From the NCBI RefSeq assembly GCF_044647545.1, contig NZ_CP172818.1: a DNA stretch of 64,000 nt. The stretch is one strand, 5' to 3'. The notes beneath the pieces are model-generated. The model saw nothing but the letters and a program-made list of their open reading frames with translations. It was not told the DNA's origin and did no database searches. This document shows, piece after piece, positions 1,133 to 62,873 of this stretch. The position numbers were made by a program, and so were the translations under genes. How positions within the stretch are numbered: the stretch's first letter is position 1; each line of letters opens with the position of its first letter. Source of the stretch: Escherichia coli (GTDB taxonomy: Bacteria; Pseudomonadota; Gammaproteobacteria; Enterobacterales; Enterobacteriaceae).

Positions 1133-1602
1133 TGAATCCACTGAAAGCCGGTGATATCGCACCGAAATTTAGCTTGCCGGATCAAGACGGAGAACAAGTT
1201 AATTTGACCGACTTCCAGGGACAGCGTGTTCTGGTTTATTTCTACCCGAAAGCCATGACCCCCGGCTGTACCGTACAGGCCTGCGGCTTACGCGATAACA
1301 TGGATGAGTTGAAAAAAGCGGGCGTTGATGTGCTGGGTATCAGCACCGATAAACCCGAAAAACTCTCCCGTTTTGCGGAAAAAGAGCTGCTTAACTTTAC
1401 GCTCCTGTCTGATGAGGACCACCAGGTGTGCGAACAATTCGGCGTCTGGGGTGAAAAGTCCTTCATGGGCAAAACCTACGATGGTATTCATCGCATCAGC
1501 TTCCTGATTGACGCTGATGGCAAAATCGAACATGTTTTTGACGATTTCAAAACCAGCAATCACCACGACGTTGTGCTGAACTGGCTGAAAGAACACGCCT
1601 GA
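1132..1602 (+). CDS. bcp: Thiol peroxidase / bacterioferritin comigratory protein (peroxiredoxin)
   Basis: 156-aa ORF with peroxiredoxin active site AMTPGCTVQAC; ATG overlaps the gcvR stop by 1 nt. Confidence 0.93.
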   Translation: MNPLKAGDIAPKFSLPDQDGEQVNLTDFQGQRVLVYFYPKAMTPGCTVQACGLRDNMDELKKAGVDVLGISTDKPEKLSRFAEKELLNFTLLSDEDHQVCEQFGVWGEKSFMGKTYDGIHRISFLIDADGKIEHVFDDFKTSNHHDVVLNWLKEHA

Positions 1603-1796
1603 TTACTTTGCTCCATTCCGTGCTGGCTGCGCTTGCGGTCAGCACACCTCACTTCTCGTGATCAAGATCACATTCTCGCTTTCCCCTGCGACACGGGTGT
1701 CGAATCCATTTATTGCTGAACGTTAATGACCATCATTTTTGTACCGTTCAGAATCCAGTTAACACATAAATTATTGAATATATTAAATTAATCAGA

Positions 1797-1813
1797 CTGG
1801 CATCCTTTATGCA
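1797..1813 (+). promoter_or_regulatory. Sigma-54 (-24/-12) promoter of the hyf operon
   Basis: cTGGCATcctttaTGCAa: GG and GC separated by 10 nt, matching TGGCAC-N5-TTGCA; about 40 nt upstream of the hyfA ATG; operon encodes a sigma-54 activator (HyfR). Confidence 0.7.
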
Positions 1814-1854
1814 ATATGAAATGCAATGTTTCATATCATTTTCAAGGAGCCGAC

Positions 1855-2472
1855 ATGAACCGCTTTGTGGTGGCCGAACCACTGTGGTGTACAGGATGTA
1901 ATACCTGTCTCGCTGCCTGTTCGGACGTGCATAAAACGCAAGGTTTACAGCAACACCCGCGCCTGGCCCTGGCGAAGACGTCAACACTCACTGCCCCTGT
2001 CGTGTGTCATCACTGTGAGGAAGCCCCTTGCCTGCAGGTCTGCCCGGTCAATGCCATCTCCCAGAGGGACGATGCGATCCAACTCAACGAAAGCCTCTGT
2101 ATTGGCTGCAAGCTTTGCGCCGTGGTCTGCCCATTTGGCGCAATCAGCGCTTCAGGAAGCCGTCCGGTGAATGCCCCTGCGCAATATGTTTTTCAGGCTG
2201 AGGGCTCACTCAAAGACGGCGAAGAAAACGCGCCAACCCAACATGCTTTGCTGCGCTGGGAACCGGGTGTCCAGACCGTCGCGGTGAAATGCGACCTGTG
2301 TGATTTCTTGCCAGAAGGTCCGGCCTGCGTTCGCGCTTGTCCGAATCAGGCGTTACGGCTGATCACCGACGATAGCCTGCAACGTCAGATGAAAGAAAAA
2401 CAGCGCCTTGCCGCAAGCTGGTTTGCCAATGGCGGGGAGGATCCCCTTTCCCTCACTCAGGAGCAACGCTAA
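1855..2472 (+). CDS. hyfA: Hydrogenase-4 ferredoxin-like subunit (multiple 4Fe-4S Cys clusters)
   Basis: 205 aa from ATG 1855 after caaggag RBS; motifs CTGCNTCLAAC, CHHCEEAPC, CIGCKLCAVVCP, CDLC...CVRACP. Confidence 0.92.
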   Translation: MNRFVVAEPLWCTGCNTCLAACSDVHKTQGLQQHPRLALAKTSTLTAPVVCHHCEEAPCLQVCPVNAISQRDDAIQLNESLCIGCKLCAVVCPFGAISASGSRPVNAPAQYVFQAEGSLKDGEENAPTQHALLRWEPGVQTVAVKCDLCDFLPEGPACVRACPNQALRLITDDSLQRQMKEKQRLAASWFANGGEDPLSLTQEQR

Positions 2473-4490
2473 TGGATGCCCTGCAATTATTAACCTGGTC
2501 GCTGATCCTCTATCTGTTTGCCAGTCTGGCTTCGCTATTTTTACTCGGTCTGGACAGACTGGCTATTAAGCTTTCCGGCATCACATCGCTGGTGGGCGGC
2601 GTGATTGGCATCATCAGCGGAATTACGCAATTACATGCAGGCGTAACTTTAGCCGCCCGTTTTGCCACACCTTTTGAATTTGCCGATTTAACCCTGCGAA
2701 TGGATAGCCTCTCGGCATTTATGGTGCTGGTTATCTCCTTGCTGGTGGTGGTTTGTTCGCTCTATTCATTGACTTATATGCGCGAATACGAGGGTAAAGG
2801 CGCGGCGGCGATGGGCTTCTTTATGAATCTTTTCATCGCATCGATGGTTGCCCTGCTGGTGATGGACAACGCTTTTTGGTTCATCGTGCTGTTTGAAATG
2901 ATGTCGCTGTCTTCCTGGTTTCTGGTCATTGCCAGGCAGGATAAAACGTCGATCAACGCTGGCATGCTCTACTTTTTTATCGCCCACGCCGGATCGGTGC
3001 TGATTATGATCGCCTTCTTGCTGATGGGGCGCGAAAGCGGCAGCCTCGATTTTGCCAGTTTCCGCACGCTTTCACTTTCTCCGGGGCTGGCGTCGGCGGT
3101 GTTCCTGCTGGCCTTTTTCGGTTTTGGCGCGAAAGCCGGGATGATGCCGTTGCACAGCTGGTTGCCGCGCGCTCACCCTGCCGCACCATCGCACGCTTCG
3201 GCGTTGATGTCTGGCGTAATGGTCAAAATCGGTATTTTCGGCATCCTTAAAGTAGCGATGGATCTGCTGGCGCAAACGGATTTGCCGCTGTGGTGGGGCA
3301 TTCTGGTGATGGCGATCGGCGCAATCTCCGCGCTCCTGGGCGTGCTATATGCGCTGGCGGAACAGGATATCAAACGGCTGCTGGCCTGGAGTACCGTCGA
3401 AAACGTCGGCATTATTTTGCTGGCGGTCGGTGTGGCGATGGTCGGTCTGTCACTGCACGACCCGCTGCTCACCGTTGTTGGACTGCTCGGCGCGCTGTTT
3501 CATCTGCTCAACCATGCGCTGTTCAAAGGGCTGCTGTTTCTCGGCGCGGGCGCAATTATTTCGCGTTTGCATACCCACGACATGGAAAAAATGGGGGCAC
3601 TGGCGAAACGGATGCCGTGGACAGCCGCAGCATGCCTGATTGGTTGCCTCGCGATATCAGCCATTCCTCCGCTGAATGGTTTTATCAGCGAATGGTACAC
3701 CTGGCAGTCGCTGTTCTCACTAAGTCGTGTGGAAGCCGTAGCGCTACAACTTGCGGGTCCTATTGCTATGGTGATGCTGGCAGTCACTGGTGGGCTGGCA
3801 GTAATGTGCTTCGTCAAAATGTACGGCATTACTTTCTGTGGTGCGCCGCGCAGTACACACGCTGAAGAGGCACAGGACGTGCCAAATACGATGATCGTCG
3901 CCATGCTACTGCTCGCGGCACTCTGCGTATTCATTGCGCTTAGTGCCAGTTGGCTGGCACCGAAGATAATGCACATTGCCCATGCGTTTACCAATACCCC
4001 TCCCGTCACTGTCGCCAGCGGAATAGCACTTGTACCCGGCACGTTTCATACACGGGTCACTCCCTCATTACTGTTGCTGTTACTACTGGCGATGCCTTTG
4101 CTGCCTGGCCTTTACTGGCTGTGGTGTCGTTCGCGCCGCGCAGCGTTTCGTCGCACAGGAGATGCCTGGGCATGCGGCTACGGCTGGGATAATGCGATGG
4201 CCCCGTCAGGCAATGGCGTGATGCAGCCGCTGCGTGTGGTCTTTTGTGCGCTATTTCGTCTACGACAACAGCTCGACCCTACGCTGAGGCTGAACAAAGG
4301 TCTTGCGCACGTCACCGCCAGGGCTCAGAGCACAGAACCCTTCTGGGATGAGCGGGTGATCCGCCCCATCGTGAGCGCCACCCAACGGCTGGCCAAAGAA
4401 ATACAGCATCTGCAAAGCGGCGACTTTCGTCTCTATTGCCTGTATGTGGTCGCCGCACTGGTTGTGCTGCTAATCGCTATTGCCGTCTAA
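2472..4490 (+). CDS. hyfB: Hydrogenase-4 membrane subunit, NuoL/Mrp antiporter-like
   Basis: 672-aa polytopic hydrophobic ORF; start overlaps hyfA stop (TAATG). Confidence 0.92.
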   Translation: MDALQLLTWSLILYLFASLASLFLLGLDRLAIKLSGITSLVGGVIGIISGITQLHAGVTLAARFATPFEFADLTLRMDSLSAFMVLVISLLVVVCSLYSLTYMREYEGKGAAAMGFFMNLFIASMVALLVMDNAFWFIVLFEMMSLSSWFLVIARQDKTSINAGMLYFFIAHAGSVLIMIAFLLMGRESGSLDFASFRTLSLSPGLASAVFLLAFFGFGAKAGMMPLHSWLPRAHPAAPSHASALMSGVMVKIGIFGILKVAMDLLAQTDLPLWWGILVMAIGAISALLGVLYALAEQDIKRLLAWSTVENVGIILLAVGVAMVGLSLHDPLLTVVGLLGALFHLLNHALFKGLLFLGAGAIISRLHTHDMEKMGALAKRMPWTAAACLIGCLAISAIPPLNGFISEWYTWQSLFSLSRVEAVALQLAGPIAMVMLAVTGGLAVMCFVKMYGITFCGAPRSTHAEEAQDVPNTMIVAMLLLAALCVFIALSASWLAPKIMHIAHAFTNTPPVTVASGIALVPGTFHTRVTPSLLLLLLLAMPLLPGLYWLWCRSRRAAFRRTGDAWACGYGWDNAMAPSGNGVMQPLRVVFCALFRLRQQLDPTLRLNKGLAHVTARAQSTEPFWDERVIRPIVSATQRLAKEIQHLQSGDFRLYCLYVVAALVVLLIAIAV

Positions 4491-4500
4491 GGAAATCACC

Positions 4501-5448
4501 ATGAGACAAACTCTTTGCGACGGATATCTGATCATTTTTGCGTTAGCACAGGCCGTGATTCTGCTGGCGCTAACCCCGCTTTTTACGGGGATTTCCCGGC
4601 AGATACGCGCGCGTATGCACTCCCGTCGCGGACCGGGGATCTGGCAGGATTATCGCGATATCCACAAACTGTTTAAACGCCAGGAAGTTGCGCCGACATC
4701 TTCAGGTCTGATGTTCCGCCTGATGCCGTGGGTATTAATCAGCAGCATGCTGGTGCTGGCGATGGCCCTACCACTATTTATTACTGTTTCCCCTTTTGCG
4801 GGCGGCGGCGATCTGATCACCCTTATCTATCTTCTTGCCCTATTTCGTTTTTTCTTTGCTCTTTCCGGGCTGGATACCGGAAGCCCCTTTGCGGGAATCG
4901 GTGCCAGTCGCGAGTTAACGCTCGGCATTCTGGTCGAACCCATGCTCATTCTCTCACTGCTGGTATTGGCGCTGATAGCGGATTCCACGCATATCGAGAT
5001 GATCAGCAAGACGCTGGCGACGGGCTGGAACTCGCCGCTAACCACCGTACTGGCGTTACTGGCCTGTGGTTTTGCCTGCTTCATTGAGATGGGAAAAATT
5101 CCCTTTGATGTTGCTGAAGCAGAACAGGAATTACAGGAAGGCCCGCTGACCGAATATTCCGGTGCCGGGCTGGCGCTGGCGAAGTTGGGGCTGGGGCTGA
5201 AACAGGTCGTGATGGCATCACTGTTTGTGGCCCTGTTTCTGCCCTTTGGGCGCGCGCAAGAGCTTTCTCTCACCTGCCTGCTGACTTCACTTGTCGTTAC
5301 GCTGCTCAAGGTTTTGCTGATTTTTGTTCTGGCCTCTATCGCAGAAAACACGCTGGCACGCGGGCGATTTTTACTCATTCACCATGTGACCTGGCTTGGC
5401 TTCAGCCTTGCTGCGCTTGCCTGGGTCTTCTGGTTAACCGGTCTGTAA
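4501..5448 (+). CDS. hyfC: Hydrogenase-4 membrane subunit (NuoH/HycD-like)
   Basis: 315 aa from ATG 4501 (MRQTLCDGYLIIFALAQ...); hydrophobic; upstream ggaaatcacc RBS. Confidence 0.9.
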   Translation: MRQTLCDGYLIIFALAQAVILLALTPLFTGISRQIRARMHSRRGPGIWQDYRDIHKLFKRQEVAPTSSGLMFRLMPWVLISSMLVLAMALPLFITVSPFAGGGDLITLIYLLALFRFFFALSGLDTGSPFAGIGASRELTLGILVEPMLILSLLVLALIADSTHIEMISKTLATGWNSPLTTVLALLACGFACFIEMGKIPFDVAEAEQELQEGPLTEYSGAGLALAKLGLGLKQVVMASLFVALFLPFGRAQELSLTCLLTSLVVTLLKVLLIFVLASIAENTLARGRFLLIHHVTWLGFSLAALAWVFWLTGL

Positions 5449-5464
5449 GGAGCACTAACGGAAT

Positions 5465-6904
5465 ATGGAAAATCTTGCTCTGACGACGTTATTGCTGCCT
5501 TTTATCGGCGCACTGGTCGTTTCGTTTTCGCCACAACGTCGGGCCGCCGAATGGGGGGTTTTGTTCGCCGCGCTGACCACGCTGTGCATGTTGTCACTGA
5601 TCTCCGCGTTTTATCAGGCCGATAAAGTTGCCGTCACGTTGACGTTGGTCAACGTGGGGGATGTGGCGTTGTTTGGCCTGGTCATTGATCGCGTGAGTAC
5701 GCTGATTCTGTTTGTGGTGGTGTTCCTCGGTTTGCTGGTCACGATCTACTCCACGGGTTATCTGACGGATAAAAATCGCGAACACCTGCATAACGGCACG
5801 AATCGTTATTACGCATTTTTGCTGGTTTTTATCGGCGCGATGGCGGGACTGGTACTCTCCTCGACGCTGCTCGGTCAGTTGTTGTTTTTTGAAATTACGG
5901 GCGGCTGCTCCTGGGCGTTGATCAGTTATTACCAGAGCGATAAAGCGCAGCGTTCAGCACTAAAAGCGTTACTTATCACTCATATCGGTTCGCTGGGGTT
6001 GTATCTTGCCGCCGCCACGCTGTTTTTGCAGACCGGAACGTTTGCGCTTAGCGCGATGAGCGAGTTACACGGCGACGCACGTTATCTGGTTTATGGCGGC
6101 ATCCTGTTTGCCGCGTGGGGGAAATCGGCCCAGCTACCGATGCAAGCGTGGCTACCGGATGCAATGGAAGCGCCAACACCGATCAGCGCCTATCTCCACG
6201 CCGCATCGATGGTGAAAGTGGGCGTTTACATTTTTGCCCGTGCCATTATCGACGGCGGCAATATCCCGCATGTGATTGGCGGCGTTGGCATGGTTATGGC
6301 ACTGGTCACCATTCTTTACGGCTTCCTGATGTATTTGCCACAGCAGGATATGAAGCGGTTGCTGGCCTGGTCGACCATCACTCAACTTGGCTGGATGTTT
6401 TTCGGCTTGTCGCTCTCCATCTTCGGCTCGCGGCTGGCGCTGGAGGGCAGCATCGCCTACATCGTCAACCACGCGTTCGCTAAAAGCCTATTTTTCCTTG
6501 TAGCAGGTGCGCTGAGTTACAGCTGCGGCACGCGCTTGTTGCCGCGTCTGCGTGGCGTATTGCACACCCTGCCGTTGCCAGGCGTGGGTTTCTGCGTAGC
6601 CGCGCTGGCGATTACTGGCGTACCGCCGTTCAACGGCTTCTTCAGTAAATTCCCGCTGTTTGCCGCCGGTTTTTCGTTGTCAGTGGAGTACTGGATCCTG
6701 CTGCCCGCCATGATTCTGCTGATGTTTGAATCGGTCGCCAGTTTCGCCTGGTTTATTCGCTGGTTTGGTCGCGTCGTGCCTGGCAAACCGAGCGAGGCCG
6801 TCGCCGATGCCGCACCGCTGCCAGGATCAATGCGCCTGGTGTTGATTGTACTGATTGTGATGTCGCTGATTTCCAGCGTAATCGCCGCGACCTGGTTGCA
6901 GTAA
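5465..6904 (+). CDS. hyfD: Hydrogenase-4 membrane subunit, antiporter-like (NuoM/N family)
   Basis: 479-aa polytopic ORF, paralogous in character to hyfB and hyfF. Confidence 0.9.
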   Translation: MENLALTTLLLPFIGALVVSFSPQRRAAEWGVLFAALTTLCMLSLISAFYQADKVAVTLTLVNVGDVALFGLVIDRVSTLILFVVVFLGLLVTIYSTGYLTDKNREHLHNGTNRYYAFLLVFIGAMAGLVLSSTLLGQLLFFEITGGCSWALISYYQSDKAQRSALKALLITHIGSLGLYLAAATLFLQTGTFALSAMSELHGDARYLVYGGILFAAWGKSAQLPMQAWLPDAMEAPTPISAYLHAASMVKVGVYIFARAIIDGGNIPHVIGGVGMVMALVTILYGFLMYLPQQDMKRLLAWSTITQLGWMFFGLSLSIFGSRLALEGSIAYIVNHAFAKSLFFLVAGALSYSCGTRLLPRLRGVLHTLPLPGVGFCVAALAITGVPPFNGFFSKFPLFAAGFSLSVEYWILLPAMILLMFESVASFAWFIRWFGRVVPGKPSEAVADAAPLPGSMRLVLIVLIVMSLISSVIAATWLQ

Positions 6905-6915
6905 GGAGATGATGA

Positions 6916-7566
6916 ATGACCGGTTCTATGATCGTAAATAATCTGGCGGGACTGATGATGCTGACATCGCTGTTTGTGATTAGCGTCAAAAGCTATCGCC
7001 TGTCATGCGGATTTTACGCCTGCCAGTCGCTGGTGCTGGTGTCTATTTTCGCCACCCTCTCGTGCCTGTTCGTCGCAGAGCAACTGCTGATCTGGTCCGC
7101 CAGCGCCTTTATCACCAAAGTGCTGCTGGTACCGTTAATCATGATTTACGCTGCACGAAATATTCCCCAGAACATCCCGGAAAAAGCGTTATTCGGTCCG
7201 GCTATGATGGCATTGCTCGCGGCATTAATTGTCCTGCTTTGCGCATTTGTCGTTCAGCCCGTGAAGCTACCGATGGCTACCGGGCTGAAACCGGCGCTGG
7301 CGGTGGCGTTAGGTCATTTTCTGCTTGGCCTGCTGTGCATTGTCAGCCAGCGCAATATCCTGCGGCAAATTTTTGGTTACTGCCTGATGGAAAACGGCTC
7401 CCATCTGGTGCTGGCGCTTCTTGCCTGGCGTGCACCGGAACTGGTGGAAATTGGTATCGCTACCGACGCCATCTTCGCCGTCATTGTGATGGTGTTACTG
7501 GCAAGAAAAATATGGCGTACCCACGGCACGCTGGACGTGAACAACTTGACCGCGCTGAAGGGATAA
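6916..7566 (+). CDS. hyfE: Hydrogenase-4 small membrane subunit (NuoK-like)
   Basis: 216-aa hydrophobic ORF in operon context. Confidence 0.88.
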
Positions 7567-7570
7567 TGAG

Positions 7571-9151
7571 ATGAGTTATTCTGTGATGTTCGCTTTACTC
7601 CTGCTCACGCCGCTGCTTTTTTCGCTGCTCTGTTTTGCCTGCCGGAAATGGGGACACTCTGCGACTCGCACGGTGACAGTACTACATAGCTTAGGGATCA
7701 CACTGCTGCTGATTCTGACACTGTGGGTGGTCCAAACTGCCGCTGATGCGGGAGAAATATTCGCTGCGGGACTGTGGCTTCATATTGATGGTCTGGGCGG
7801 TTTGTTCCTCGCCATTCTTGGTGTGATTGGCTTTCTCACCGGTGTTTACTCGATTGGCTACATGCGTCATGAAGTGGCACACGGCGAGCTTTCACCCGTT
7901 ACGCTGTGCGATTACTACGGTTTCTTCCATCTGTTTTTGTTCACCATGCTGCTGGTTGTTACCAGCAATAACCTGATTGTGATGTGGGCGGCGATCGAAG
8001 CCACCACCTTAAGCTCGGCGTTTCTGGTAGGCATTTACGGTCAGCGTTCATCGCTGGAAGCTGCATGGAAGTACATCATTATTTGTACTGTTGGTGTCGC
8101 TTTTGGTCTGTTCGGTACCGTGCTGGTATACGCCAACGCCGCCAGCGTTATGCCGCAGGCAGAAATGGCGATATTCTGGAGCGAGGTTCTTAAGCAATCG
8201 TCCTTGCTTGACCCAACATTAATGCTGTTGGCCTTTGTGTTTGTGCTAATTGGCTTTGGCACCAAAACCGGGCTATTCCCCATGCACGCCTGGCTGCCAG
8301 ATGCTCACAGTGAAGCGCCGAGTCCGGTCAGCGCCCTGCTCTCCGCCGTATTGCTGAACTGCGCGCTATTGGTGCTGATTCGCTATTACATCATTATTTG
8401 CCAGGCCATCGGCAGCGATTTCCCCAACCGGTTGTTGCTCATCTTCGGCATGTTGTCGGTTGCCGTGGCGGCATTTTTCATTCTGGTACAGCGGGACATT
8501 AAGCGTCTGCTGGCGTACTCCAGCGTGGAGAACATGGGACTGGTCGCGGTGGCGTTAGGCATTGGCGGGCCGCTGGGAATTTTTGCCGCGCTGCTGCACA
8601 CCTTAAACCACAGTCTGGCAAAAACGCTGCTGTTCTGCGGTTCCGGCAATGTACTGCTCAAGTACGGCACGCGCGATCTCAACGTCGTCTGCGGAATGCT
8701 CAAAATCATGCCATTTACCGCCGTGCTGTTTGGCGGCGGTGCGCTGGCGCTGGCCGGGATGCCGCCCTTCAACATTTTTCTTAGCGAATTTATGACCGTT
8801 ACCGCCGGACTGGCGCGTAATCACCTGCTGATTATCGTCCTGCTGTTATTGCTGTTAACGCTGGTGCTGGCGGGCCTGGTACGGATGGCTGCGCGGGTGT
8901 TAATGGCGAAACCGCCGCAGGCCGTTAACCGGGGTGAACTTGGCTGGTTGACCACCTCGCCAATGGTGATTCTGCTGGTCATGATGCTGGCGATGGGAAC
9001 GCATATTCCACAACCTGTCATCAGGATCCTGGCGGGCGCTTCCACTATAGTCCTCTCAGGGACGCACGACCTGCCTGCACAACGTAGCACCTGGCATGAT
9101 TTTTTGCCTTCAGGCACCGCATCTGTTTCGGAGAAACACAGTGAACGTTAA
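7571..9151 (+). CDS. hyfF: Hydrogenase-4 membrane subunit, antiporter-like
   Basis: 526-aa polytopic ORF; third antiporter-like paralog in the operon. Confidence 0.9.
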
Positions 9152-10856
9152 TTCATCGTCAAATCGTGGCGAAGCGATTCTCGCCGCCCTGAAAACGCAG
9201 TTCCCCGGCGCGGTGCTGGATGAAGAGCGACAAACGCCTGAACAGGTCACCATTACGGTGAAAATCAATCTGCTGCCTGACGTTGTGCATTATCTTTATT
9301 ATCAACATGATGGCTGGCTTCCGGTCCTGTTTGGCAACGACGAGCGGACACTTAACGGTCATTACGCGGTTTATTATGCCCTTTCTATGGAAGGGGCCGA
9401 AAAATGCTGGATCGTGGTGAAGGCACTGGTCGATGCCGACAGTCGGGAGTTTCCGTCAGTCACACCGCGCGTCCCTGCCGCGGTCTGGGGCGAGCGAGAA
9501 ATTCGCGATATGTACGGGTTGATTCCGGTTGGCCAGCCGGATCAGCGTCGGCTGGTGTTGCCCGATGACTGGCCGGAAGATATGCATCCGCTGCGCAAAG
9601 ACGCGATGGATTATCGACTGCGCCCAGAACCGACGACTGATACCGAAACGTATCCGTTTATCAACGAGGGCAACAGCGATGCGCGGGTGATCCCTGTCGG
9701 CCCGCTGCATATCACCTCCGATGAACCAGGTCACTTCCGCTTGTTTGTGGATGGCGAGCAAATTGTCGATGCTGATTACCGCCTGTTTTATGTCCATCGC
9801 GGCATGGAGAAACTGGCAGAAACGCGGATGGGCTACAACGAAGTGACCTTCTTATCCGACCGCGTGTGTGGGATTTGCGGTTTTGCCCACAGTGTGGCCT
9901 ATACCAACTCGGTTGAAAATGCACTGGGGATTGAGGTGCCGCAACGAGCGCATACTATTCGCTCGATTCTGCTGGAAGTCGAACGGCTGCATAGTCATTT
10001 GCTCAACCTTGGCCTCTCCTGCCATTTTGTTGGTTTTGATACCGGCTTTATGCAATTTTTCCGCGTGCGGGAAAAGTCGATGACGATGGCGGAATTGCTG
10101 ACCGGGTCGCGTAAAACCTACGGTCTGAATCTGATTGGTGGTGTTCGCCGCGATATTCTCAAAGAGCAACGTCTGCAAACGCTGAAACTGGTGCGCGAGA
10201 TGCGCGCCGACGTGTCGGAGCTGGTAGAGATGTTGCTTGCCACGCCGAATATGGAACAACGCACTCAGGGCATTGGCATTCTCGACCGACAAATCGCCCG
10301 TGATTATAGCCCCGTAGGGCCGCTGATCCGCGGCAGTGGCTTTGCCCGTGATTTGCGCTTTGATCACCCCTACGCCGACTACGGCAATATTCCCAAAACG
10401 CTGTTTACCTTTACCGGCGGCGATGTCTTCTCCCGCGTGATGGTCCGTGTCAAAGAGACGTTTGATTCGCTGGCAATGCTGGAATTTGCCCTCGACAACA
10501 TGCCAGATACCCCACTGCTGACCGAAGGCTTTAGCTATAAACCTCACGCATTCGCGCTGGGCTTTGTTGAAGCGCCACGTGGTGAAGACGTGCACTGGAG
10601 CATGCTCGGTGATAACCAAAAATTGTTCCGCTGGCGCTGTCGTGCCGCCACCTACGCCAACTGGCCAGTGCTGCGTTACATGCTGCGCGGCAATACCGTT
10701 TCTGACGCACCGCTGATTATCGGTAGCCTTGATCCCTGTTACTCCTGTACCGACCGTGTGACGCTGGTTGATGTGCGCAAGCGCCAGTCAAAAACCGTGC
10801 CGTATAAAGAGATCGAACGCTACGGCATTGATCGTAACCGTTCGCCGCTGAAGTAA
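9141..10856 (+). CDS. hyfG: Hydrogenase-4 [NiFe] large catalytic subunit
   Basis: N-terminal NiFe ligand motif [10 protein letters not shown] and C-terminal DPCYSCTDR. Start ambiguous: GTG 9141 (overlaps hyfF stop by 11 nt) or ATG 9096. Confidence 0.9.
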
Positions 10857-10865
10857 GGACAGAAA

Positions 10866-11411
10866 ATGCTGAAGTTACTGAAAACTATTATGCGCGCCGG
10901 AACCGCGACGGTGAAATATCCCTTCGCGCCACTGGAGGTCAGCCCAGGCTTTCGCGGGAAACCGGACCTGATGCCCAGCCAATGTATTGCCTGCGGTGCC
11001 TGCGCCTGTGCTTGTCCGGCAAATGCGCTGACTATCCAGACCGACGACCAACAAAATACGCGCACCTGGCAGCTCTATCTGGGGCGTTGTATTTACTGCG
11101 GACGTTGTGAAGAAGTGTGCCCGACCAGAGCCATTCAGCTTACCAATAACTTTGAACTGACCGTCACCAATAAAGCCGATCTCTATACCCGCGCGACGTT
11201 TCATCTACAACGTTGCAGTCGTTGCGAACGCCCATTTGCCCCGCAAAAAACCGTCGCACTGGCTGCAGAACTGTTGGCACAGCAACAAAATGCGCCACAA
11301 AACCGCGAAATGTTGTGGGCGCAAGCGAGCATCTGCCCGGAATGCAAACAACGCGCGACGCTGATCAACGACGATACAGATGTACCGCTGGTGGCTAAGG
11401 AGCAGCTATGA
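10866..11411 (+). CDS. hyfH: Hydrogenase-4 ferredoxin-type subunit (2x 4Fe-4S)
   Basis: 181 aa; [12 protein letters not shown] and [12 protein letters not shown] motifs. Confidence 0.9.
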
Positions 11412-12166
11412 GTCCAGTGCTTACGCAACATGTCAGCCAGCCCATAACGCTGGACGAGCAAACGCAAAAGATGAAGCAGCATTTGCTACAGGATATCCGT
11501 CGCTCGGCTTACGTTTATCGCGTCGATTGCGGCGGCTGCAACGCCTGCGAAATCGAAATTTTTGCCGCCATCACACCCGTATTCGACGCAGAACGTTTTG
11601 GCATTAAGGTTGTTTCATCACCGCGTCACGCCGATATTTTGTTATTTACTGGCGCAGTCACCCGGGCGATGCGTATGCCTGCACTTCGGGCATATGAGTC
11701 TGCCCCCGATCATAAAATCTGTGTTTCCTACGGCGCGTGCGGTGTCGGCGGCGGTATTTTCCACGATCTTTACAGCGTCTGGGGCGGCAGCGACACCATT
11801 GTCCCCATTGATGTTTGGATCCCCGGCTGCCCGCCAACACCGGCCGCCACCATTCACGGTTTCGCCGTGGCGCTCGGTTTGCTGCAACAGAAGATTCACG
11901 CGGTGGATTATCGCGATCCCACCGGGGTGACCATGCAACCGCTGTGGCCGCAGATCCCGCCATCACAGCGTATCGCCATTGAGCGAGAAGCGAGGCGGCT
12001 GGCGGGCTATCGTCAAGGGCGAGAAATTTGCGATCGGCTCCTGCGCCATTTAAGCGACGATCCTACAGGAAATCGGGTTAACACCTGGTTGCGCGAAGCT
12101 GACGATCCACGTCTCAATAGTATCGTTCAGCAACTCTTTCGCGTTCTCCGGGGGTTACATGGCTGA
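11408..12166 (+). CDS. hyfI: Hydrogenase-4 small subunit (NuoB/HycG-like, Fe-S)
   Basis: 252 aa; CGGCNAC ... GACGVGGG ... PGCPP motifs typical of NuoB-type small subunits; overlaps hyfH stop. Confidence 0.9.
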
Positions 12167-12572
12167 GGAGTGCAGGGAAATTGTTTTCTGGACGCTGCGA
12201 AAAAAATTTATCGCCAGTAGCGACGAGATGCCGGAACACAGCTCCCAGGTAATGTATTACTCGTTGGCTATCGGTCATCACGTTGGCGTGATTGATTGTT
12301 TGAATGTCGCCTTCCGCTGCCCACAGACGGAATACGAAGATTGGCTTGCACAGGTCGAAGAGGAGCAAGCCCGACGTAAGATGCTGGGGGTGATGACTTT
12401 TGGTGAGATTGTTATTGACGCCAGCCACACCGCCCTGTTGACCCGGGCATTCGCGCCACTGGCAGATGACGCGACGTCGGCGTGGCAGGCGCGTAGCATT
12501 CAATTCATTCATCTGTTGGATGAAATTGTGCAGGAACCGGTCATCTATCTGATGGCCAGAAAAATTGCGTGA
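12159..12572 (+). CDS. hyfJ: Hydrogenase-4 maturation/assembly factor (HycH-like)
   Basis: 137-aa ORF overlapping hyfI 3' end; operon position. Confidence 0.85.
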
Positions 12573-12601
12573 GAAGGATTTCTCATTAATAAGGACTGTT
12601 G

Positions 12602-14614
12602 ATGGCTATGTCAGACGAGGCGATGTTTGCCCCGCCGCAAGGAATAACAATTGAAGCGGTAAACGGAATGCTCGCGGAGCGGTTAGCACAGAAACACGGC
12701 AAGGCGTCTTTATTACGCGCCTTCATCCCGCTGCCGCCGCCGTTCAGCCCGGTACAACTTATTGAACTGCATGTTCTCAAAAGCAACTTCTATTACCGCT
12801 ACCATGATGATGGCAGCGATGTGACGGCAACAACAGAGTATCAGGGTGAGATGGTCGATTATTCGCGCCACGCCGTCCTTCTCGGCAGTAGTGGAATGGC
12901 GGAGCTACGCTTTATTCGCACCCACGGCAGTCGTTTTACTCCCCAGGATTGCACACTGTTTAACTGGCTGGCACACATAATCACTCCGGTTCTGCAATCA
13001 TGGCTCAATGATGAAGAACAGCAGGTGGCGCTGCGTTTGCTGGAGAAAGATCGCGATCATCATCGGGTACTGGTGGATATCACTAATGCAGTGTTGTCAC
13101 ATCTTGATCTCGACGATCTGATCGCTGACGTCGCTCGTGAGATCCATCATTTTTTCGGTCTGGCTTCAGTCAGTATGGTACTGGGCGATCATCGAAAGAA
13201 CGAGAAGTTCAGCCTGTGGTGCAGCGATCTTTCTGCCTCACATTGTGCGTGTCTGCCACGCTGTATGCCTGGCGAAAGTGTATTGCTGACACAAACGCTA
13301 CAAACCCGACAACCGACCTTGACGCACTGTGCAGACGATCTGTTTCTCTGGCAACGCGACCCGTTATTACACTTACTTGCATCTAACGGCTGCGAATCTG
13401 CGCTCCTTATACCGCTCACCTTTGGCAACCATACACCGGGTGCATTGTTGCTGGCGCATACCTCTTCCACTCTCTTTAGTGAGGAAAACTGCCAGCTACT
13501 ACAACATATTGCCGATCGCATCGCTATTGCCGTTGGCAATGCCGATGCCTGGCGCAGCATGACCGATTTGCAGGAAAGCTTGCAGCAAGAAAACCACCAG
13601 CTTAGCGAGCAGCTCCTTTCGAATCTGGGCGTCGGTGACATTATCTATCAAAGCCAGGCAATGGAAGACCTGCTCCAGCAGGTAGATATTGTGGCGAAGA
13701 GCGACAGTACGGTGTTGATTTGTGGTGAAACCGGAACCGGCAAAGAGGTGATCGCCAGAGCGATCCATCAACTTAGCCCACGACGCGACAAGCCACTGGT
13801 CAAAATCAACTGCGCTGCCATCCCCGCCAGTCTTCTGGAAAGTGAGTTATTCGGTCATGACAAAGGGGCATTTACTGGTGCGATTAATACCCATCGTGGT
13901 CGTTTTGAAATTGCCGATGGCGGCACGTTGTTTCTCGATGAAATTGGCGATCTGCCGTTAGAACTTCAGCCTAAACTGCTGCGCGTATTGCAGGAACGGG
14001 AGATTGAGCGTCTCGGCGGGAGTAGAACGATCCCGGTAAATGTCAGAGTCATTGCCGCCACCAACCGTGATTTGTGGCAAATGGTTGAAGATCGCCAGTT
14101 TCGCAGCGATCTCTTTTATCGCCTGAATGTCTTCCCACTGGAACTGCCGCCACTGCGCGACCGTCCGGAAGATATCCCTCTTTTAGCAAAGCATTTCACG
14201 CAAAAAATGGCGCGCCATATGAATCGCGCAATTGACGCCATCCCGACCGAGGCGCTACGCCAGTTGATGTCGTGGGACTGGCCGGGCAACGTGCGCGAGC
14301 TGGAAAACGTGATTGAGCGAGCGGTACTACTGACTCGCGGTAACAGTCTGAATTTACATCTTAATGTCCGACAAAGCCGTTTACTGCCGACGCTAAATGA
14401 AGATTCAGCGCTTCGCAGTTCAATGGCGCAGTTACTGCACCCGACGACGCCAGAGAATGACGAAGAAGAACGTCAGCGCATTGTTCAGGTATTGCGAGAA
14501 ACCAATGGCATTGTTGCCGGGCCCCGTGGCGCGGCGACACGATTAGGGATGAAGCGCACCACGCTGCTGTCACGAATGCAGCGTCTGGGGATCTCGGTTC
14601 GCGAGGTGTTGTAA
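12602..14614 (+). CDS. hyfR: Sigma-54-dependent transcriptional activator of hyf (FhlA paralog)
   Basis: 670 aa from ATG 12602; Walker A GETGTGKE, sigma-54 contact motif GAFTGA, C-terminal HTH. Confidence 0.92.
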
Positions 14615-18703: not shown

Positions 18704-18743
18704 ACGAATACTATGGGTGCATATCCGACAATAAACGTCTTGT

Positions 18744-31603: not shown

Positions 31604-31627
31604 TCATTCATAGTGCAGGGATCAAAA

Positions 31628-33205
31628 TCATTCCCACTCAATGGTAGCTGGCGGCTTGCCGCTGATGTCATACACCACGCGGGAAATACCGTTCACTTCA
31701 TTGATAATGCGGTTGGAAACGCGACCGAGGAAATCGTACGGCAGATGCGCCCAGTGTGCGGTCATAAAGTCGATGGTTTCGACAGCACGCAGAGAGACAA
31801 CCCAGTCATACTTACGACCATCGCCCATTACGCCAACGGAACGTACCGGCAGGAAGACGGTGAACGCCTGGCTGACTTTGTCGTACAGGTCCGCTTTACG
31901 CAGTTCTTCAATGAAGATGGCGTCAGCACGGCGCAGCAGGTCACAATACTCTTTCTTCACTTCACCCAGAACACGAACGCCAAGGCCTGGTCCCGGGAAC
32001 GGGTGACGGTACAGCATGTCGTACGGCAGGCCCAGCTCCAGACCAATCTTACGCACTTCGTCTTTGAACAGCTCTTTCAGCGGTTCAACCAGGCCCATCT
32101 TCATCTCTTTCGGCAGGCCGCCCACGTTGTGGTGAGATTTGATGACATGTGCTTTACCGGTTGCAGAAGCAGCAGATTCGATAACGTCAGGGTAGATAGT
32201 GCCCTGCGCCAGCCACTTCACGTCTTCCAGTTTCAGTGCTTCTTCATCGAATACTTCAACGAAAACGCGACCGATGATTTTACGTTTTGCTTCCGGATCG
32301 TTTTCGCCAGCCAGCGCTGACAGGAAGCGATCTTCTGCCGGTACGTGAACAATGTTCAGACCAAAGTGATCGCCAAACATATCCAGAACCTGCTCTGCTT
32401 CGTTGAGACGCAGCAGGCCGTTGTCGACGAATACGCAAGTCAGGTTTTTACCGATAGCGCGGTGCAGCAGCATTGCGGTTACGGAGGAATCCACACCACC
32501 AGAGAGGCCGAGGATGACTTTATCGTCGCCTACCTGCTCGCGGATGCGAGCTACAGCATCGTCGATAATTTTCGCTGGCGTCCACAGGGCTTCACACTGG
32601 CAGATATCACGCACAAAACGCTCCAGCATGCGCATACCCTGGCGAGTGTGAGTCACTTCCGGGTGGAACTGTACGCCATAGAAGCGTTTTTCTTCGTTAG
32701 CCATGATGGCGAACGGGCAGCTTTCGGTGCTGGCTACGGTGATGAAGTCGGACGGGATAGCGGTAACTTTATCGCCGTGGCTCATCCAGACATCGAGCAG
32801 AGGTTTACCGTCTGCTGTCAGAGCATCTTCGATACCGCGAACCAGTGCGCTGTCGTTTACGACTTCAACCTGCGCATAGCCAAATTCACGTTCGTTAGAG
32901 GCTTCAACATGACCACCCAACTGCATTGCCATGGTCTGCATACCATAGCAAACGCCGAATACCGGTACGCCTGCTTCAAAGACATACTGCGGCGCACGCG
33001 GGCTGTTTTCTTCGGTGGTGCTTTCCGGGCCGCCGGAAAGAATAATGCCGCTTGGATTGAAGTCACGAATTTGTGCTTCTGTCACATCCCACGCCCACAG
33101 TTCGCAGTAAACACCCAGTTCACGCACGCGGCGCGCAACCAGTTGGGTGTACTGAGAACCGAAGTCCAGAATGAGGATGCGATGCTTATGAATGTTTTCC
33201 GTCAT
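31628..33205 (-). CDS. guaA: GMP synthase (glutamine-hydrolysing)
   Basis: 525 aa; GATase N-terminus, PP-loop SGGVDSSV. Confidence 0.95.
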
Positions 33206-33273
33206 TGACGCTTATTCCGAGGCAAGTGAAACAGATAATATAAATCGCCCGACATGAAGTCGGGCGAAGAGAA

Positions 33274-34740
33274 TCAGGAGCCCAGACGGTAGTTCGGGGA
33301 CTCTTTAGTAATGGTCACGTCGTGAACGTGGCTTTCCTGAATGCCCGCACCGCTGATACGTACAAACTCCGCTTTAGTACGCAGTTCGTCGATAGTACCA
33401 CAGCCGGTCAGGCCCATACAGGAGCGCAGGCCGCCCATCTGCTGGTGAATGATCTCTTTCAGGCGACCTTTATAGGCCACGCGACCTTCGATACCTTCCG
33501 GCACCAGTTTGTCGGCAGCGTTGTCGCTCTGGAAGTAACGGTCAGAAGAACCTTTGGACATCGCGCCCAGAGAGCCCATCCCACGGTAAGACTTGTAAGA
33601 ACGGCCCTGGTAGAGCTCGATTTCACCTGGGGATTCTTCAGTACCCGCCAGCATGGAACCTACCATCACCGCGCTTGCACCAGCAGCGATAGCTTTGGCG
33701 ATATCGCCAGAGAAACGAATACCACCGTCAGCGATAACCGGAATCCCGGTGCCTTCCAGGGCTTCTACTGCGTCAGCAACGGCGGTGATCTGCGGAACAC
33801 CTACGCCAGTCACGATACGCGTCGTACAGATAGAGCCAGGGCCGATACCGACTTTAACCGCGCTGCAACCAGCTTCTGCCAGAGCGCGTGCCCCCGCAGC
33901 TGTTGCCACGTTGCCGCCGATGATTTGCAGATCCGGATATTTAGCACGAGTTTCACGGATACGCTGCAGAACGCCTTCAGAGTGACCGTGAGAGGAGTCG
34001 ATCAGCAGAACGTCAACGCCTGCGGCAACCAGCGCGTCGACACGCTCTTCGTTACCAGCGCCAGCGCCAACCGCTGCACCAACACGCAGACGGCCTTGCT
34101 CGTCTTTACAGGCGTTCGGTTTACGTTCCGCTTTCTGGAAGTCTTTCACAGTGATCATGCCGATCAGGTGGAATTCGTCATCAACCACCAGCGCCTTTTC
34201 AACGCGTTTTTCGTGCATTTTTGCCAGCACCACTTCACGGGCTTCGCCTTCACGCACGGTTACCAGACGCTCTTTCGGCGTCATGTAAACGCTAACCGGT
34301 TGATTCAGATCGGTCACAAAACGCACGTCACGACCGGTGATGATGCCGACCAGTTCGTTTTCTTCGGTAACCACCGGGTAACCCGCAAAGCCGTTACGTT
34401 CAGTCAGTTCTTTCACTTCACGCAGGGTGGTTGTCGGCAGCACGGTCTGCGGATCAGTTACCACGCCAGATTCGTGTTTTTTCACACGGCGAACTTCTTC
34501 TGCCTGGCGTTCAATGGACATGTTTTTGTGGATAAAGCCGATACCGCCTTCCTGAGCCAGAGCAATAGCCAGGCGCGCTTCCGTTACGGTATCCATTGCT
34601 GCGGAAAGCATAGGGATATTCAGACGAATAGTTTTCGTCAGCTGGGTGCTGAGGTCAGCAGTATTCGGCAGAACGGTAGAATGAGCAGGAACGAGGAGAA
34701 CGTCGTCAAACGTCAGAGCTTCTTTAGCGATACGTAGCAT
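33274..34740 (-). CDS. guaB: IMP dehydrogenase
   Basis: 488 aa from ATG at 34740 ([19 protein letters not shown]...); catalytic loop [11 protein letters not shown]; CBS domains. Confidence 0.95.
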
Positions 34741-34871
34741 GGGCAATATCTCGACCAGAGTGGTTAATAAATATTGCCGCGGCATTATACAGAGCGTAAC
34801 CGATTGCATCTACCCCTTTTTGCAAAAAATGCTTGCTATCCCCGGAGGGCGGGTTACTATCGACTGAATAA

Positions 34872-36245
<1,374 letters not shown>

Positions 36246-36267
36246 AAAAATCGCGTAAAAAGGTGCA

Positions 36268-36488
36268 TTAAGCCAGCACGAATTCAACGCGTTTTTTCGA
36301 TATTAAACCATGCCCATGCTGACAGAAGTAATCCACTGCACCACAAGCTTTTAACACCTGCAACGCCTGATGACACTCAGGACAAAGTGCCTTGATTTCG
36401 GTAAATTTTCTCCCGCAAGATCGACAACGAGCATCTCGCCGTTATCCTGATCAAGCATCATGCTAGATTGTGGACAATGCAGTTCCAT
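36268..36488 (-). pseudogene. yfgJ: yfgJ-like small zinc-ribbon protein gene with interrupted reading frame
   Basis: Minus strand: GGAG RBS then ATG (36488) MELHCPQ...; C-terminal 58 codons (...ARCRSCG...LCPECHQ...YFCQHGHGLISKKRVEFVLA*) lie in another frame; span 221 nt is not a multiple of 3. Confidence 0.45.
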
Positions 36489-36557
36489 ATGAAACGCTCC
36501 ACATTCGCAGCCATTCCCTCTCCGTTCAGAAAGGGAAAGCAGATAAAAACACGATAA

Positions 36558-38030
36558 TTACTTACTTTTCTTGATGTGCTTCATCAGACGCTTACGCTTG
36601 CGCATCTGAGTCGGCGTCAGGGTATTACGCTTGTTCGCATACGGGTTTTCCCCTTCTTTGAACTGAATACGAATCGGCGATCCCATTACGTCCAGCGATT
36701 TGCGGAAGTAGTTCATCAGGTAACGCTTGTAGGAATCAGGCAGGTCTTTCACCTGATTACCGTGAATCACCACAATCGGCGGGTTATAACCCCCGGCGTG
36801 GGCATATTTCAGCTTCACTCGACGACCGCGTACCAGCGGCGGTTGGTGATCTTCAACCGCCATCGTCATGATGCGCGTCAGCATAGAGGTCCCCACACGA
36901 CGGGTGGAGCTGTCATACGCTTCACGTACTGATTCAAACAAGTTACCAACACCACTGCCGTGCAAGGCAGAGATAAAGTGCACACGAGCAAAATCGATAA
37001 AGCCCAGACGGAAGTCCAGCGTCTCTTTCACCTGCTCTTTCACTTCCTGGCTCAGGCCGTCCCACTTGTTCACTACAATCACAAGTGAGCGCCCACTATT
37101 GAGAATAAAGCCCAGCAAGGAGAGATCCTGATCGGAAATACCTTCACGCGCATCAATCACCAACATCACCACGTTGGCATCTTCAATGGCCTGCAACGTT
37201 TTGATTACCGAGAACTTCTCTACCGCATCGGTGATTTTGCCGCGTTTACGTACGCCAGCGGTGTCAATGAGCACATACTCACGTCCGTCGCGTTCCATTG
37301 GAATGTAGATACTGTCACGCGTCGTGCCAGGCATGTCGTAAACAACAACGCGTTCTTCACCGAGAATACGGTTAGTGAGCGTAGACTTACCGACGTTCGG
37401 ACGACCCACAATCGCCAGTTTGATCGGCAGACTTTGCGGGTCGAAGTCGTCTTCCTCTTCTTCTTCGCCGTTCTCTTCCGCTTCAAATTGCGCCCAGTAT
37501 TCGGCGTCTTCGTCGACTTCTTCTTGCGGTGCGAGATCTTCCATCCACGGCAGCAGCACGTGCTCCAGCAGACTTAATACGCCACGACCGTGAGACGCGG
37601 CGATCGGGTAGATTTCACCTAAACCAAGCGAGTAGAAATCAACCACTGCCTGATCGGGATCCAGACCGTCAGTTTTGTTTGCCACCAGGAAGGTCGGTTT
37701 TTCACGGGAGCGCAGATGTTTAGCAATCGCTTCATCCGCCGGCATCAGGCCCGCGCGCGCATCCACCATAAACAGTACGACGTCCGCTTCTTCAATCGCC
37801 AGCAGCGACTGTTCCGCCATGCGGGTTTCTACACCGTCTTCTGTGCCATCAATCCCGCCGGTATCAATGCAGATAAACTCACGGCCTTCAATTTCCGCAC
37901 GACCGTACTTACGGTCACGAGTCAGACCCGGGAAATCCGCAACCAGCGCATCTCGGGTGCGAGTTAGACGGTTAAATAACGTGGATTTTCCTACGTTAGG
38001 GCGCCCGACAAGCGCGACCACAGGTACCAT
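36558..38030 (-). CDS. der: Ribosome-associated GTPase Der/EngA (tandem GTPase domains + KH-like)
   Basis: 490 aa from ATG at 38030 ([16 protein letters not shown]...); second G-domain [10 protein letters not shown]. Confidence 0.94.
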
Positions 38031-54051: not shown

Positions 54052-54294
54052 ATTGCTGGTCTGTTCCCTCAATATACCAAACACCCACGACACAAACTCC
54101 TAACCTCTTTCAACAAAAAATTTCTTTATTATATCCACTGCGGCCCTTTCCGCCAACTTAAAAAATGTTCGGTAATAAAATAACCTGGCTTATTAGTCCG
54201 AATTCGGACAAATATAAACAAATCAGCTCAATATTAAAAATACTAATCGGTAAAAGATATTACTTAAACGTGTAAATTCACTTTCTTTAAACAA

Positions 54295-56979: not shown

Positions 56980-57027
56980 TTTAGTTATCCTTATTCGTTT
57001 AACGCAAAACGGGTCCCCCCAGCCCAT

Positions 57028-62799: not shown

Positions 62800-62873
62800 T
62801 GTCGGATGCGGTGTGAACACCTTATCCGACCTGGACCAAGCCTGATAAGACGCGTTAAGCATCGCATCAGGCA
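62800..62873. repeat. REP/BIME cluster (two palindromic units)
   Basis: gtcggatgcggtgtgaacaccttatccgac and gcctgataagacgcgttaagcatcgcatcaggc, classic REP units between trmJ and the iscR promoter. Confidence 0.75.

Follow-up and report, generated by a model that had tools for sequence, protein, structure and literature searches.

A frame-broken yfgJ homologue beside xseA in an ST648-type Escherichia coli genome record: a probable assembly chimera of two alleles

The genes xseA and yfgJ of Escherichia coli are listed as a convergent transcriptional overlap (PMC12288877), and the interval between them is a known variable region, 'GR17 xseA..yfgJ', the site of the ila (sinH, sinI, ratA) cluster (PMC12928451). 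In the 64,000-nucleotide stretch of E. coli DNA analysed here (the window), a yfgJ homologue on the minus strand (36268..36488) has a broken reading frame and the adjacent xseA ends early. The question raised by this locus is whether the two lesions are pseudogenes carried by the strain or faults of the genome record. The sequence-only reading of the window, which had noticed both disruptions, raised a locally low-quality region as an alternative to two independent pseudogenisations. Our analysis favours the former: both lesions fall inside a single patch of 387 bp, and with a probability of roughly 0.7 the broken yfgJ and the truncated xseA would be artefacts of a reference-guided or consensus assembly and not biological pseudogenes.

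State of the yfgJ reading frame

The yfgJ homologue is preceded by a good ribosome binding site (GGAG-N8-ATG, minus strand) with the ATG at 36488-36486, and extends for 221 nt from ATG to stop. The start frame reads MELHCPQSSMMLDQDNGEMLVVDLAGENLPKSRHFVLSVIRRCRC and terminates at the stop codon 36351-36353, which gives an ORF of 45 aa (beginning MELHCPQSSMML, 36351..36488, minus strand) that follows the correct reading to about codon 17 only. The Cys-rich C-terminal part lies out of the start frame, in a frame of 57 codons plus stop (RRDARCRSCG...VEFVLA, 36268..36441, minus strand) that carries zinc knuckles 2-4; read from 36486, with a two-base offset, this frame runs through RRDARCRSCGRKFTEIKALCPECHQALQVLKACGAVDYFCQHGHGLISKKRVEFVLA and ends at 36268. 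All of this agrees with what had been read from the letters alone, down to the ribosome binding site, the span and the displaced C-terminus. In K-12, yfgJ is a single 216-nt ORF of 71 aa (MELHCPQCQHVLDQDNGHARCRSCGEFIEMKALCPDCHQPLQVLKACGAVDYFCQHGHGLISKKRVEFVLA) that takes in both halves, so that the two parts in the window can be read as one gene only with a frameshift. The simpler possibility, a reference yfgJ encoded wholly in one of the two window frames from a different start, does not apply, and the earlier estimate that at least one indel separates the two halves from a single small ORF holds.

The identity of the gene, proposed originally from its translation, has been confirmed. The repaired (conceptual) translation of 72 aa matches Pfam PF07191, a double zinc ribbon, over residues 4-69 (E=5e-24), and the C-terminal frame matches PDB 2JNE, the NMR structure of E. 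coli YfgJ (E=8.5e-29); judged by these two matches, the homologue is not a chance ORF. Its position is also that of the K-12 gene, downstream of der and convergent with xseA in the island-less arrangement. K-12 YfgJ (71 aa; 2JNE; PF07191, Zn_ribbon_6) and the window gene share the segments MELHCPQ, LDQDNG and RCRSCG and the last 29 residues (VLKACGAVDYFCQHGHGLISKKRVEFVLA) without any difference, and in both the yfgJ stop codon overlaps the stop of a K-12-type xseA. The window gene differs from its K-12 counterpart in its length (221 and not 216 nt), the broken frame, the loss of Cys8, two extra residues between the knuckles and several residues of the type found in ST648 strains.

Two features expected of a YfgJ protein are thus absent from the window. 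Instead of one uninterrupted ORF of about 70-75 aa there are ORFs of 45 and 57 aa in different frames, and the zinc ligands (C5-x2-C8...C21-x2-C24-x9-C34-x2-C37...) are neither complete nor correctly spaced. Cys8, which occupies its column in 114 of 115 homologues, is replaced by Ser, and two of the spacers are longer by one residue each, in columns where all 115 have a gap. Retention of the good Shine-Dalgarno sequence and the ATG might be taken to mean that the gene functions in a split or recoded form, either by programmed frameshifting or as two separately translated peptides. This idea is hardly credible, since every one of the 403 homologues found is a single ORF (403/403), no slippery heptamer (X XXY YYZ) occurs at GGC GAG ATG CTC, the first zinc knuckle has lost Cys8, and the configuration is confined to one record.

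A mosaic patch in an ST648-type background

Outside the immediate surroundings of yfgJ the window belongs to a well-defined clone. Positions 1-36201 are identical to MS6198, an ST648-type strain, at 100.000% with 0 mismatches and 0 gaps; 31626-36201 are 100% identical to FDAARGOS_497, and between 36640 and 38189 no 50-nt bin differs from the latter. To the right of the patch, one SNP and three small garbled spots are listed against FDAARGOS_497; over the roughly 27 kb of this right side the only clean SNP is at 45725 in pbpC (C vs T). The closest whole-region relatives include a strain whose name is ST648, and an origin from Shigella or from another Escherichia species has been rejected, since the backbone shows identity with E. 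coli of ST648 type.

To check the reading frames, 42 genes annotated in an E. coli reference were compared with the window. Frame-breaking indels were found in xseA (1 gap) and yfgJ (4 gap openings, 7 bases in all) only, and in none of the 40 other genes; differences in rodZ and yfhM are in frame, in multiples of three, and the remaining genes are gap-free at 97-100% identity. With 40 genes free of frame-breaking indels and 36.2 kb that are base-perfect against MS6198, the notion of a window of generally low quality was discarded. Two ST648-specific length differences from K-12 are reproduced exactly. One is a deletion of 38 nt near 18716-18723. The other is an insertion of 48 nt in hyfG (10305-10344), present in the same form in MS6198 (hyfG of 1,716 nt vs 1,668 nt in K-12), which looks like an in-frame duplication belonging to the natural variation of the clone.

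In ST648-type relatives (FDAARGOS_497, MS6198, AR_451) the gene order is xseA, an 8-kb adhesin gene, sinI, sinH, yfgJ and der, so that xseA and yfgJ are separated by about 11.9 kb of a sinH/sinI/adhesin (ila, CS54-like) island. The segment 36198-36589 of the window corresponds to 1471-13419 of the locus sequence of an ST648-type relative; sinH, sinI and the ratA-like adhesin are all absent, and xseA and yfgJ are adjacent. The ST648 allele of yfgJ is intact (MELNCPICKTPLERNGETAHCATCDKDFTVQALCPECHQALQVLKACGAVDYFCQHGHGLISKKRVEFIIA). The protein of the clone (WP_022645978.1 of FDAARGOS_497, 71 aa) shares with the window gene the segments GE(T)A, KxFT and ALCPECHQALQ, including an Ala private to this allele, and der and xseA on either side agree with the window at 100%; the two loci differ in that the clone's yfgJ lies about 11.9 kb of island away from xseA, whereas the window has K-12-type sequence in place of the island. 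Across E. coli, yfgJ falls into deeply diverged allele classes, with very different N-terminal halves and almost invariant C-terminal 30 residues, and the allele class correlates with whether a sinH island is present next to the gene.

Identity to the ST648 type is lost after CCTGG (36198..36202, plus strand), where ST648-type xseA passes into K-12-type sequence and the two xseA alleles cease to align, and it returns at about 36590. The intervening patch (36203..36589) comprises the 3' end of xseA, yfgJ and the yfgJ-der spacer, and K-12-type bases are interleaved in it with those of the clone's own allele. The damage goes beyond a point indel in yfgJ; by the alignments, the patch in its full length is chimeric at the level of single bases, with K-12-type sequence and the clone's yfgJ allele as its two components.

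The neighbouring xseA shares this hybrid structure. Over its first 1,300 nt it agrees at 100% with the ST648 allele (itself about 92% identical to K-12 xseA); the last ~70 nt are of K-12 type and lack 1 nt at ~36225/36226 (GAAGTAAAAAAC > GAAAGAAAAAC), so that the ORF (34902..36245, plus strand) encodes 447 aa. The K-12 protein has 456 aa and that of ST648 strains, whose gene is intact with a different 3' end, has 455 aa. The second frame disruption that had been pointed out close to yfgJ is thus real; its distance from the frame-breaking site of yfgJ is about 185-210 bp.

Alignment with reference yfgJ, the check proposed at the outset, has placed the indels at three sites. Relative to K-12 they amount to a -1/+1 pair, a +2 and a +3, with a net gain of 5 nt. 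At 36458..36467 (minus strand) CQHV is read as SSMM and the Cys8 codon is lost as a result of the -1/+1 pair and a G>C change; the sequence there corresponds to ST648-type ATCT joined to K-12-type AGCATG, the ST648 allele reading CCAATCTGC. The frame is broken at 36434..36435 (minus strand), where the alignments and the list of sites unique to the window show GGCGAGATGCT, 2 nt longer than K-12 (GGC--CATGCG). An equivalent description of this site, relative to the ST648 allele GGCGAGACTGCT, is a gain of 3 nt at a staggered join from K-12-type to ST648-type sequence and the loss of one C, and by this description the actual frame-breaker is the single lost C (GAGACTGCT > GAGATGCT). The third site, 36408..36410 (minus strand), has 3 nt more than K-12 (GGG AGA AAA TTT ACC vs GGG GAA TTT ATT) so that the spacer from Cys24 to Cys34 gains a residue found in 0 of 115 homologues. 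Both extra residues sit exactly where the alignment of K-12-type with ST648-type DNA staggers by three bases (AAYGGC, TTTAC). The odd residues of yfgJ fall at such staggered joins and are therefore by-products of chimeric joining rather than independent mutations. A simple homopolymer error was considered and rejected, as none of the indels is a plain change of run length.

The intermixture of the two parental types is very fine. Site by site, the patch carries 104 bases found in K-12 only, 47 found in ST648 only and 21 found in neither. At the protein level the K-12-type segment MELHCPQ..LDQDNG is followed by GE(T)A of ST648 type, RCRSCG of K-12 type, (R)KFT of ST648 type, EIK of K-12 type, ALCPECHQALQ of ST648 type, and finally VLK...VEFVLA of K-12 type. 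This requires at least 6 parental switches within the 216 nt of yfgJ, to which four small indels within about 60 nt have to be added; in a jumping alignment of the patch, 21 mismatches remain even after 13 switches. Derivation from one parent by deletion only was rejected (LCS 268/322 vs the ST648 type and 280/322 vs K-12). Both parents have left signatures of their own. The patch has the Ala of CHQALQ that is otherwise peculiar to the ST648 allele (0/115 homologue representatives), and the resident allele itself must therefore have contributed. Conversely, the 69-nt xseA tail, essentially identical to K-12, and the VEFVLA end have no counterpart in the ST648 locus, and a foreign template is therefore needed. 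Mutation in situ cannot account for the patch, because the flanks are free of SNPs over 36 kb and the patch is ~14-20% divergent.

Searches for the patch elsewhere gave no close relative. Among 5,426 complete E. coli genomes, identity reaches at best 85.9% for a 471-nt query (36150-36620), 91.9% for 36203-36400 and 80.2% for 36380-36575, with K-12/BL21-like alleles among the best matches for each query. No intact YfgJ closer than 85% was found in 5.8 billion protein clusters, and a window-specific 22-mer (GGGAGAAAATTTACCGAAATCA) had no match in a pattern scan of species-representative genomes. A degenerate C-terminal pattern also had no match in the species-representative genomes, but was probably too strict, as it missed the E. 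coli representative as well. When about 15 billion proteins were searched for exact copies of the 447-aa XseA and of the 45-aa ORF product, each was found on one NCBI contig only (4,499,902 bp). A pseudogene established in a lineage would be expected to recur in independent genomes with a divergence that matches its flanks; here the products are found on one contig, the 5,426 complete genomes reach no more than 85.9% identity, and flanks that are 100% identical to clone-mates enclose a patch 14-20% divergent from the nearest allele.

These data bear directly on the possibility that the yfgJ region of the window is a true third allele, deeply diverged and imported from an unsampled Escherichia lineage, with frameshifts that reflect decay or sequencing errors. 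A third lineage would also be expected to show a mixture of K-12-type, ST648-type and unique sites, and several deep allele classes of yfgJ do exist in E. coli. We nevertheless consider this origin quite improbable. The main objection is the Ala shared with the ST648 allele to which it is private; moreover, the branch leading to the patch is short relative to the K-12 and ST648 branches despite its degenerate look, the extra residues occupy columns gapped in every homologue, the adjoining xseA tail is that of K-12, and neither the genome, protein nor pattern searches returned a relative.

Origin of the patch

Reference-guided assemblies are subject to reference bias and chimeric consensus, in which alleles of the sample appear where the reads align, and bases or structure of the reference where the sample is too divergent; in such a consensus sample-specific insertions may be missing, and small indels or garbles appear at structural differences. 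The window shows the same pattern, with the difference that some sample-specific indels are cleanly reproduced. The most economical account of the locus would run as follows. The strain is of ST648 type, and its true locus is expected to be xseA, the adhesin/sinI/sinH island of ~11.9 kb, yfgJ and der, with xseA and yfgJ both intact. Divergent reads may have been forced onto a K-12-structured scaffold, and a reference-guided consensus or gap-filling step could then have produced the base-by-base mixture; the extra codons, the loss of Cys8 and the small indels are products of the staggered DNA register in which the two alleles are joined. We infer that the chimera was probably formed in silico rather than in the cell, and that the island is likely to be really present in the strain.

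The main competitor of this account is a real scar of recombination or deletion: K-12-like, island-less DNA taken up by an ST648 cell would have undergone homeologous recombination with the resident locus and removed the sinH island, in which case the mosaic yfgJ and the hybrid xseA would be truly frameshifted and real pseudogenes. Several observations speak for it: the K-12-type bases do need a K-12-type template, the resident allele has clearly contributed, xseA..yfgJ is a variable region either occupied or empty among E. coli, the short identities at the staggered joins (AAYGGC, TTTAC) could equally be used by strand exchange in vivo, and a clone-mate with a true loss of the island is conceivable. 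We regard it as doubtful all the same, and an assembly artefact is favoured on several grounds. The parental types alternate down to adjacent bases, with at least 6 switches in the 216 nt, unlike known tracts of recombination or mismatch repair, and the clustering of four small indels adds to the difficulty. The junctions lie exactly where the homology of ST648 and K-12 collapses, that is at the least homologous points, and not in the well-conserved flanks, which contain no donor-type SNPs. The patch and its products are unique to one contig, with no closer allele, genome or protein set among those searched, and 40 other genes of the window carry no frame-breaking indel. Unlikely too is the more specific proposal that a single homeologous exchange in vivo excised the 11.9-kb adhesin virulence island and left a fine mosaic scar that inactivates yfgJ and truncates XseA, the large subunit of ExoVII.

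A further argument for the artefact, and against the scar, comes from deletion-only garbles that the same window contains at structural differences between ST648 and K-12. The clearest is at 54064..54161, downstream of the sseA terminator, where all 98 nt recur, in order, within 188 nt of the ST648 timP/sseB'-duplication region; the other 90 bases have been dropped, with 0 substitutions (LCS 98/98, vs 77.2 ± 1.9 for shuffles with a maximum of 83). In a wider alignment G accounts for 41 of 84 dropped bases and nearly all G bases are gone. The match to the shorter K-12 version is poorer (91/98 as a subsequence), and BLAST found no match for this segment in the 5,426 complete E. coli genomes. The window also lacks a duplicated copy of ~0.4-0.5 kb in the timP region that is carried by FDAARGOS_497. 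Two further deletion-only garbles relative to ST648 genomes are seen: one at 57003..57024, in a GC-rich hairpin of the pepB-iscX interval, and one of 13 nt at 62834..62836, in a REP element between iscR and trmJ. The three spots plainly look like sequence that cannot be biological. All four anomalies, the patch and the three garbles, coincide with structural differences between ST648 and K-12, and at the sites of the island and of the timP duplication the window combines K-12 structure with ST648 bases. The size of the record, 4,499,902 bp vs about 4.9-5.4 Mb for the listed ST648-type relatives, has likewise been counted in favour of an artefact.

Some observations count against an assembly artefact, or at least restrict its form. 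The +48 nt of hyfG and the -38 nt near 18716 are perfectly reproduced, and reference retention is uneven: K-12 insertions of 164 nt and 147 nt at 57003-57024 and 62834-62836, respectively, have not been kept. The exact ST648 indels and the absence of the K-12 REP insertions imply that a naive consensus made only by mapping reads onto K-12 MG1655 is insufficient and was rejected as such; de novo contigs or local reassembly must presumably have been used in the pipeline. About 10-20 bases of the patch, as well as the 1-nt deletion in xseA, match neither parent.

Consequences for the locus and for the record

The findings bring nothing new on the function of YfgJ or on the listed xseA-yfgJ transcriptional overlap, and their main value is a caution about the assembly record. 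Taken at face value, the record describes an ST648-type E. coli without the sinH/sinI/adhesin island, without YfgJ and without the C-terminus of exonuclease VII. If the patch is an artefact, as we consider probable, pseudogene counts, island calls and pangenome statistics would be wrong here and probably at many other loci as well. If, on the other hand, the patch is real, it would mean that the island has been excised by an unusually fine-grained recombination between sequences only ~65-80% identical, which would be of moderate interest for the genome plasticity of E. coli.
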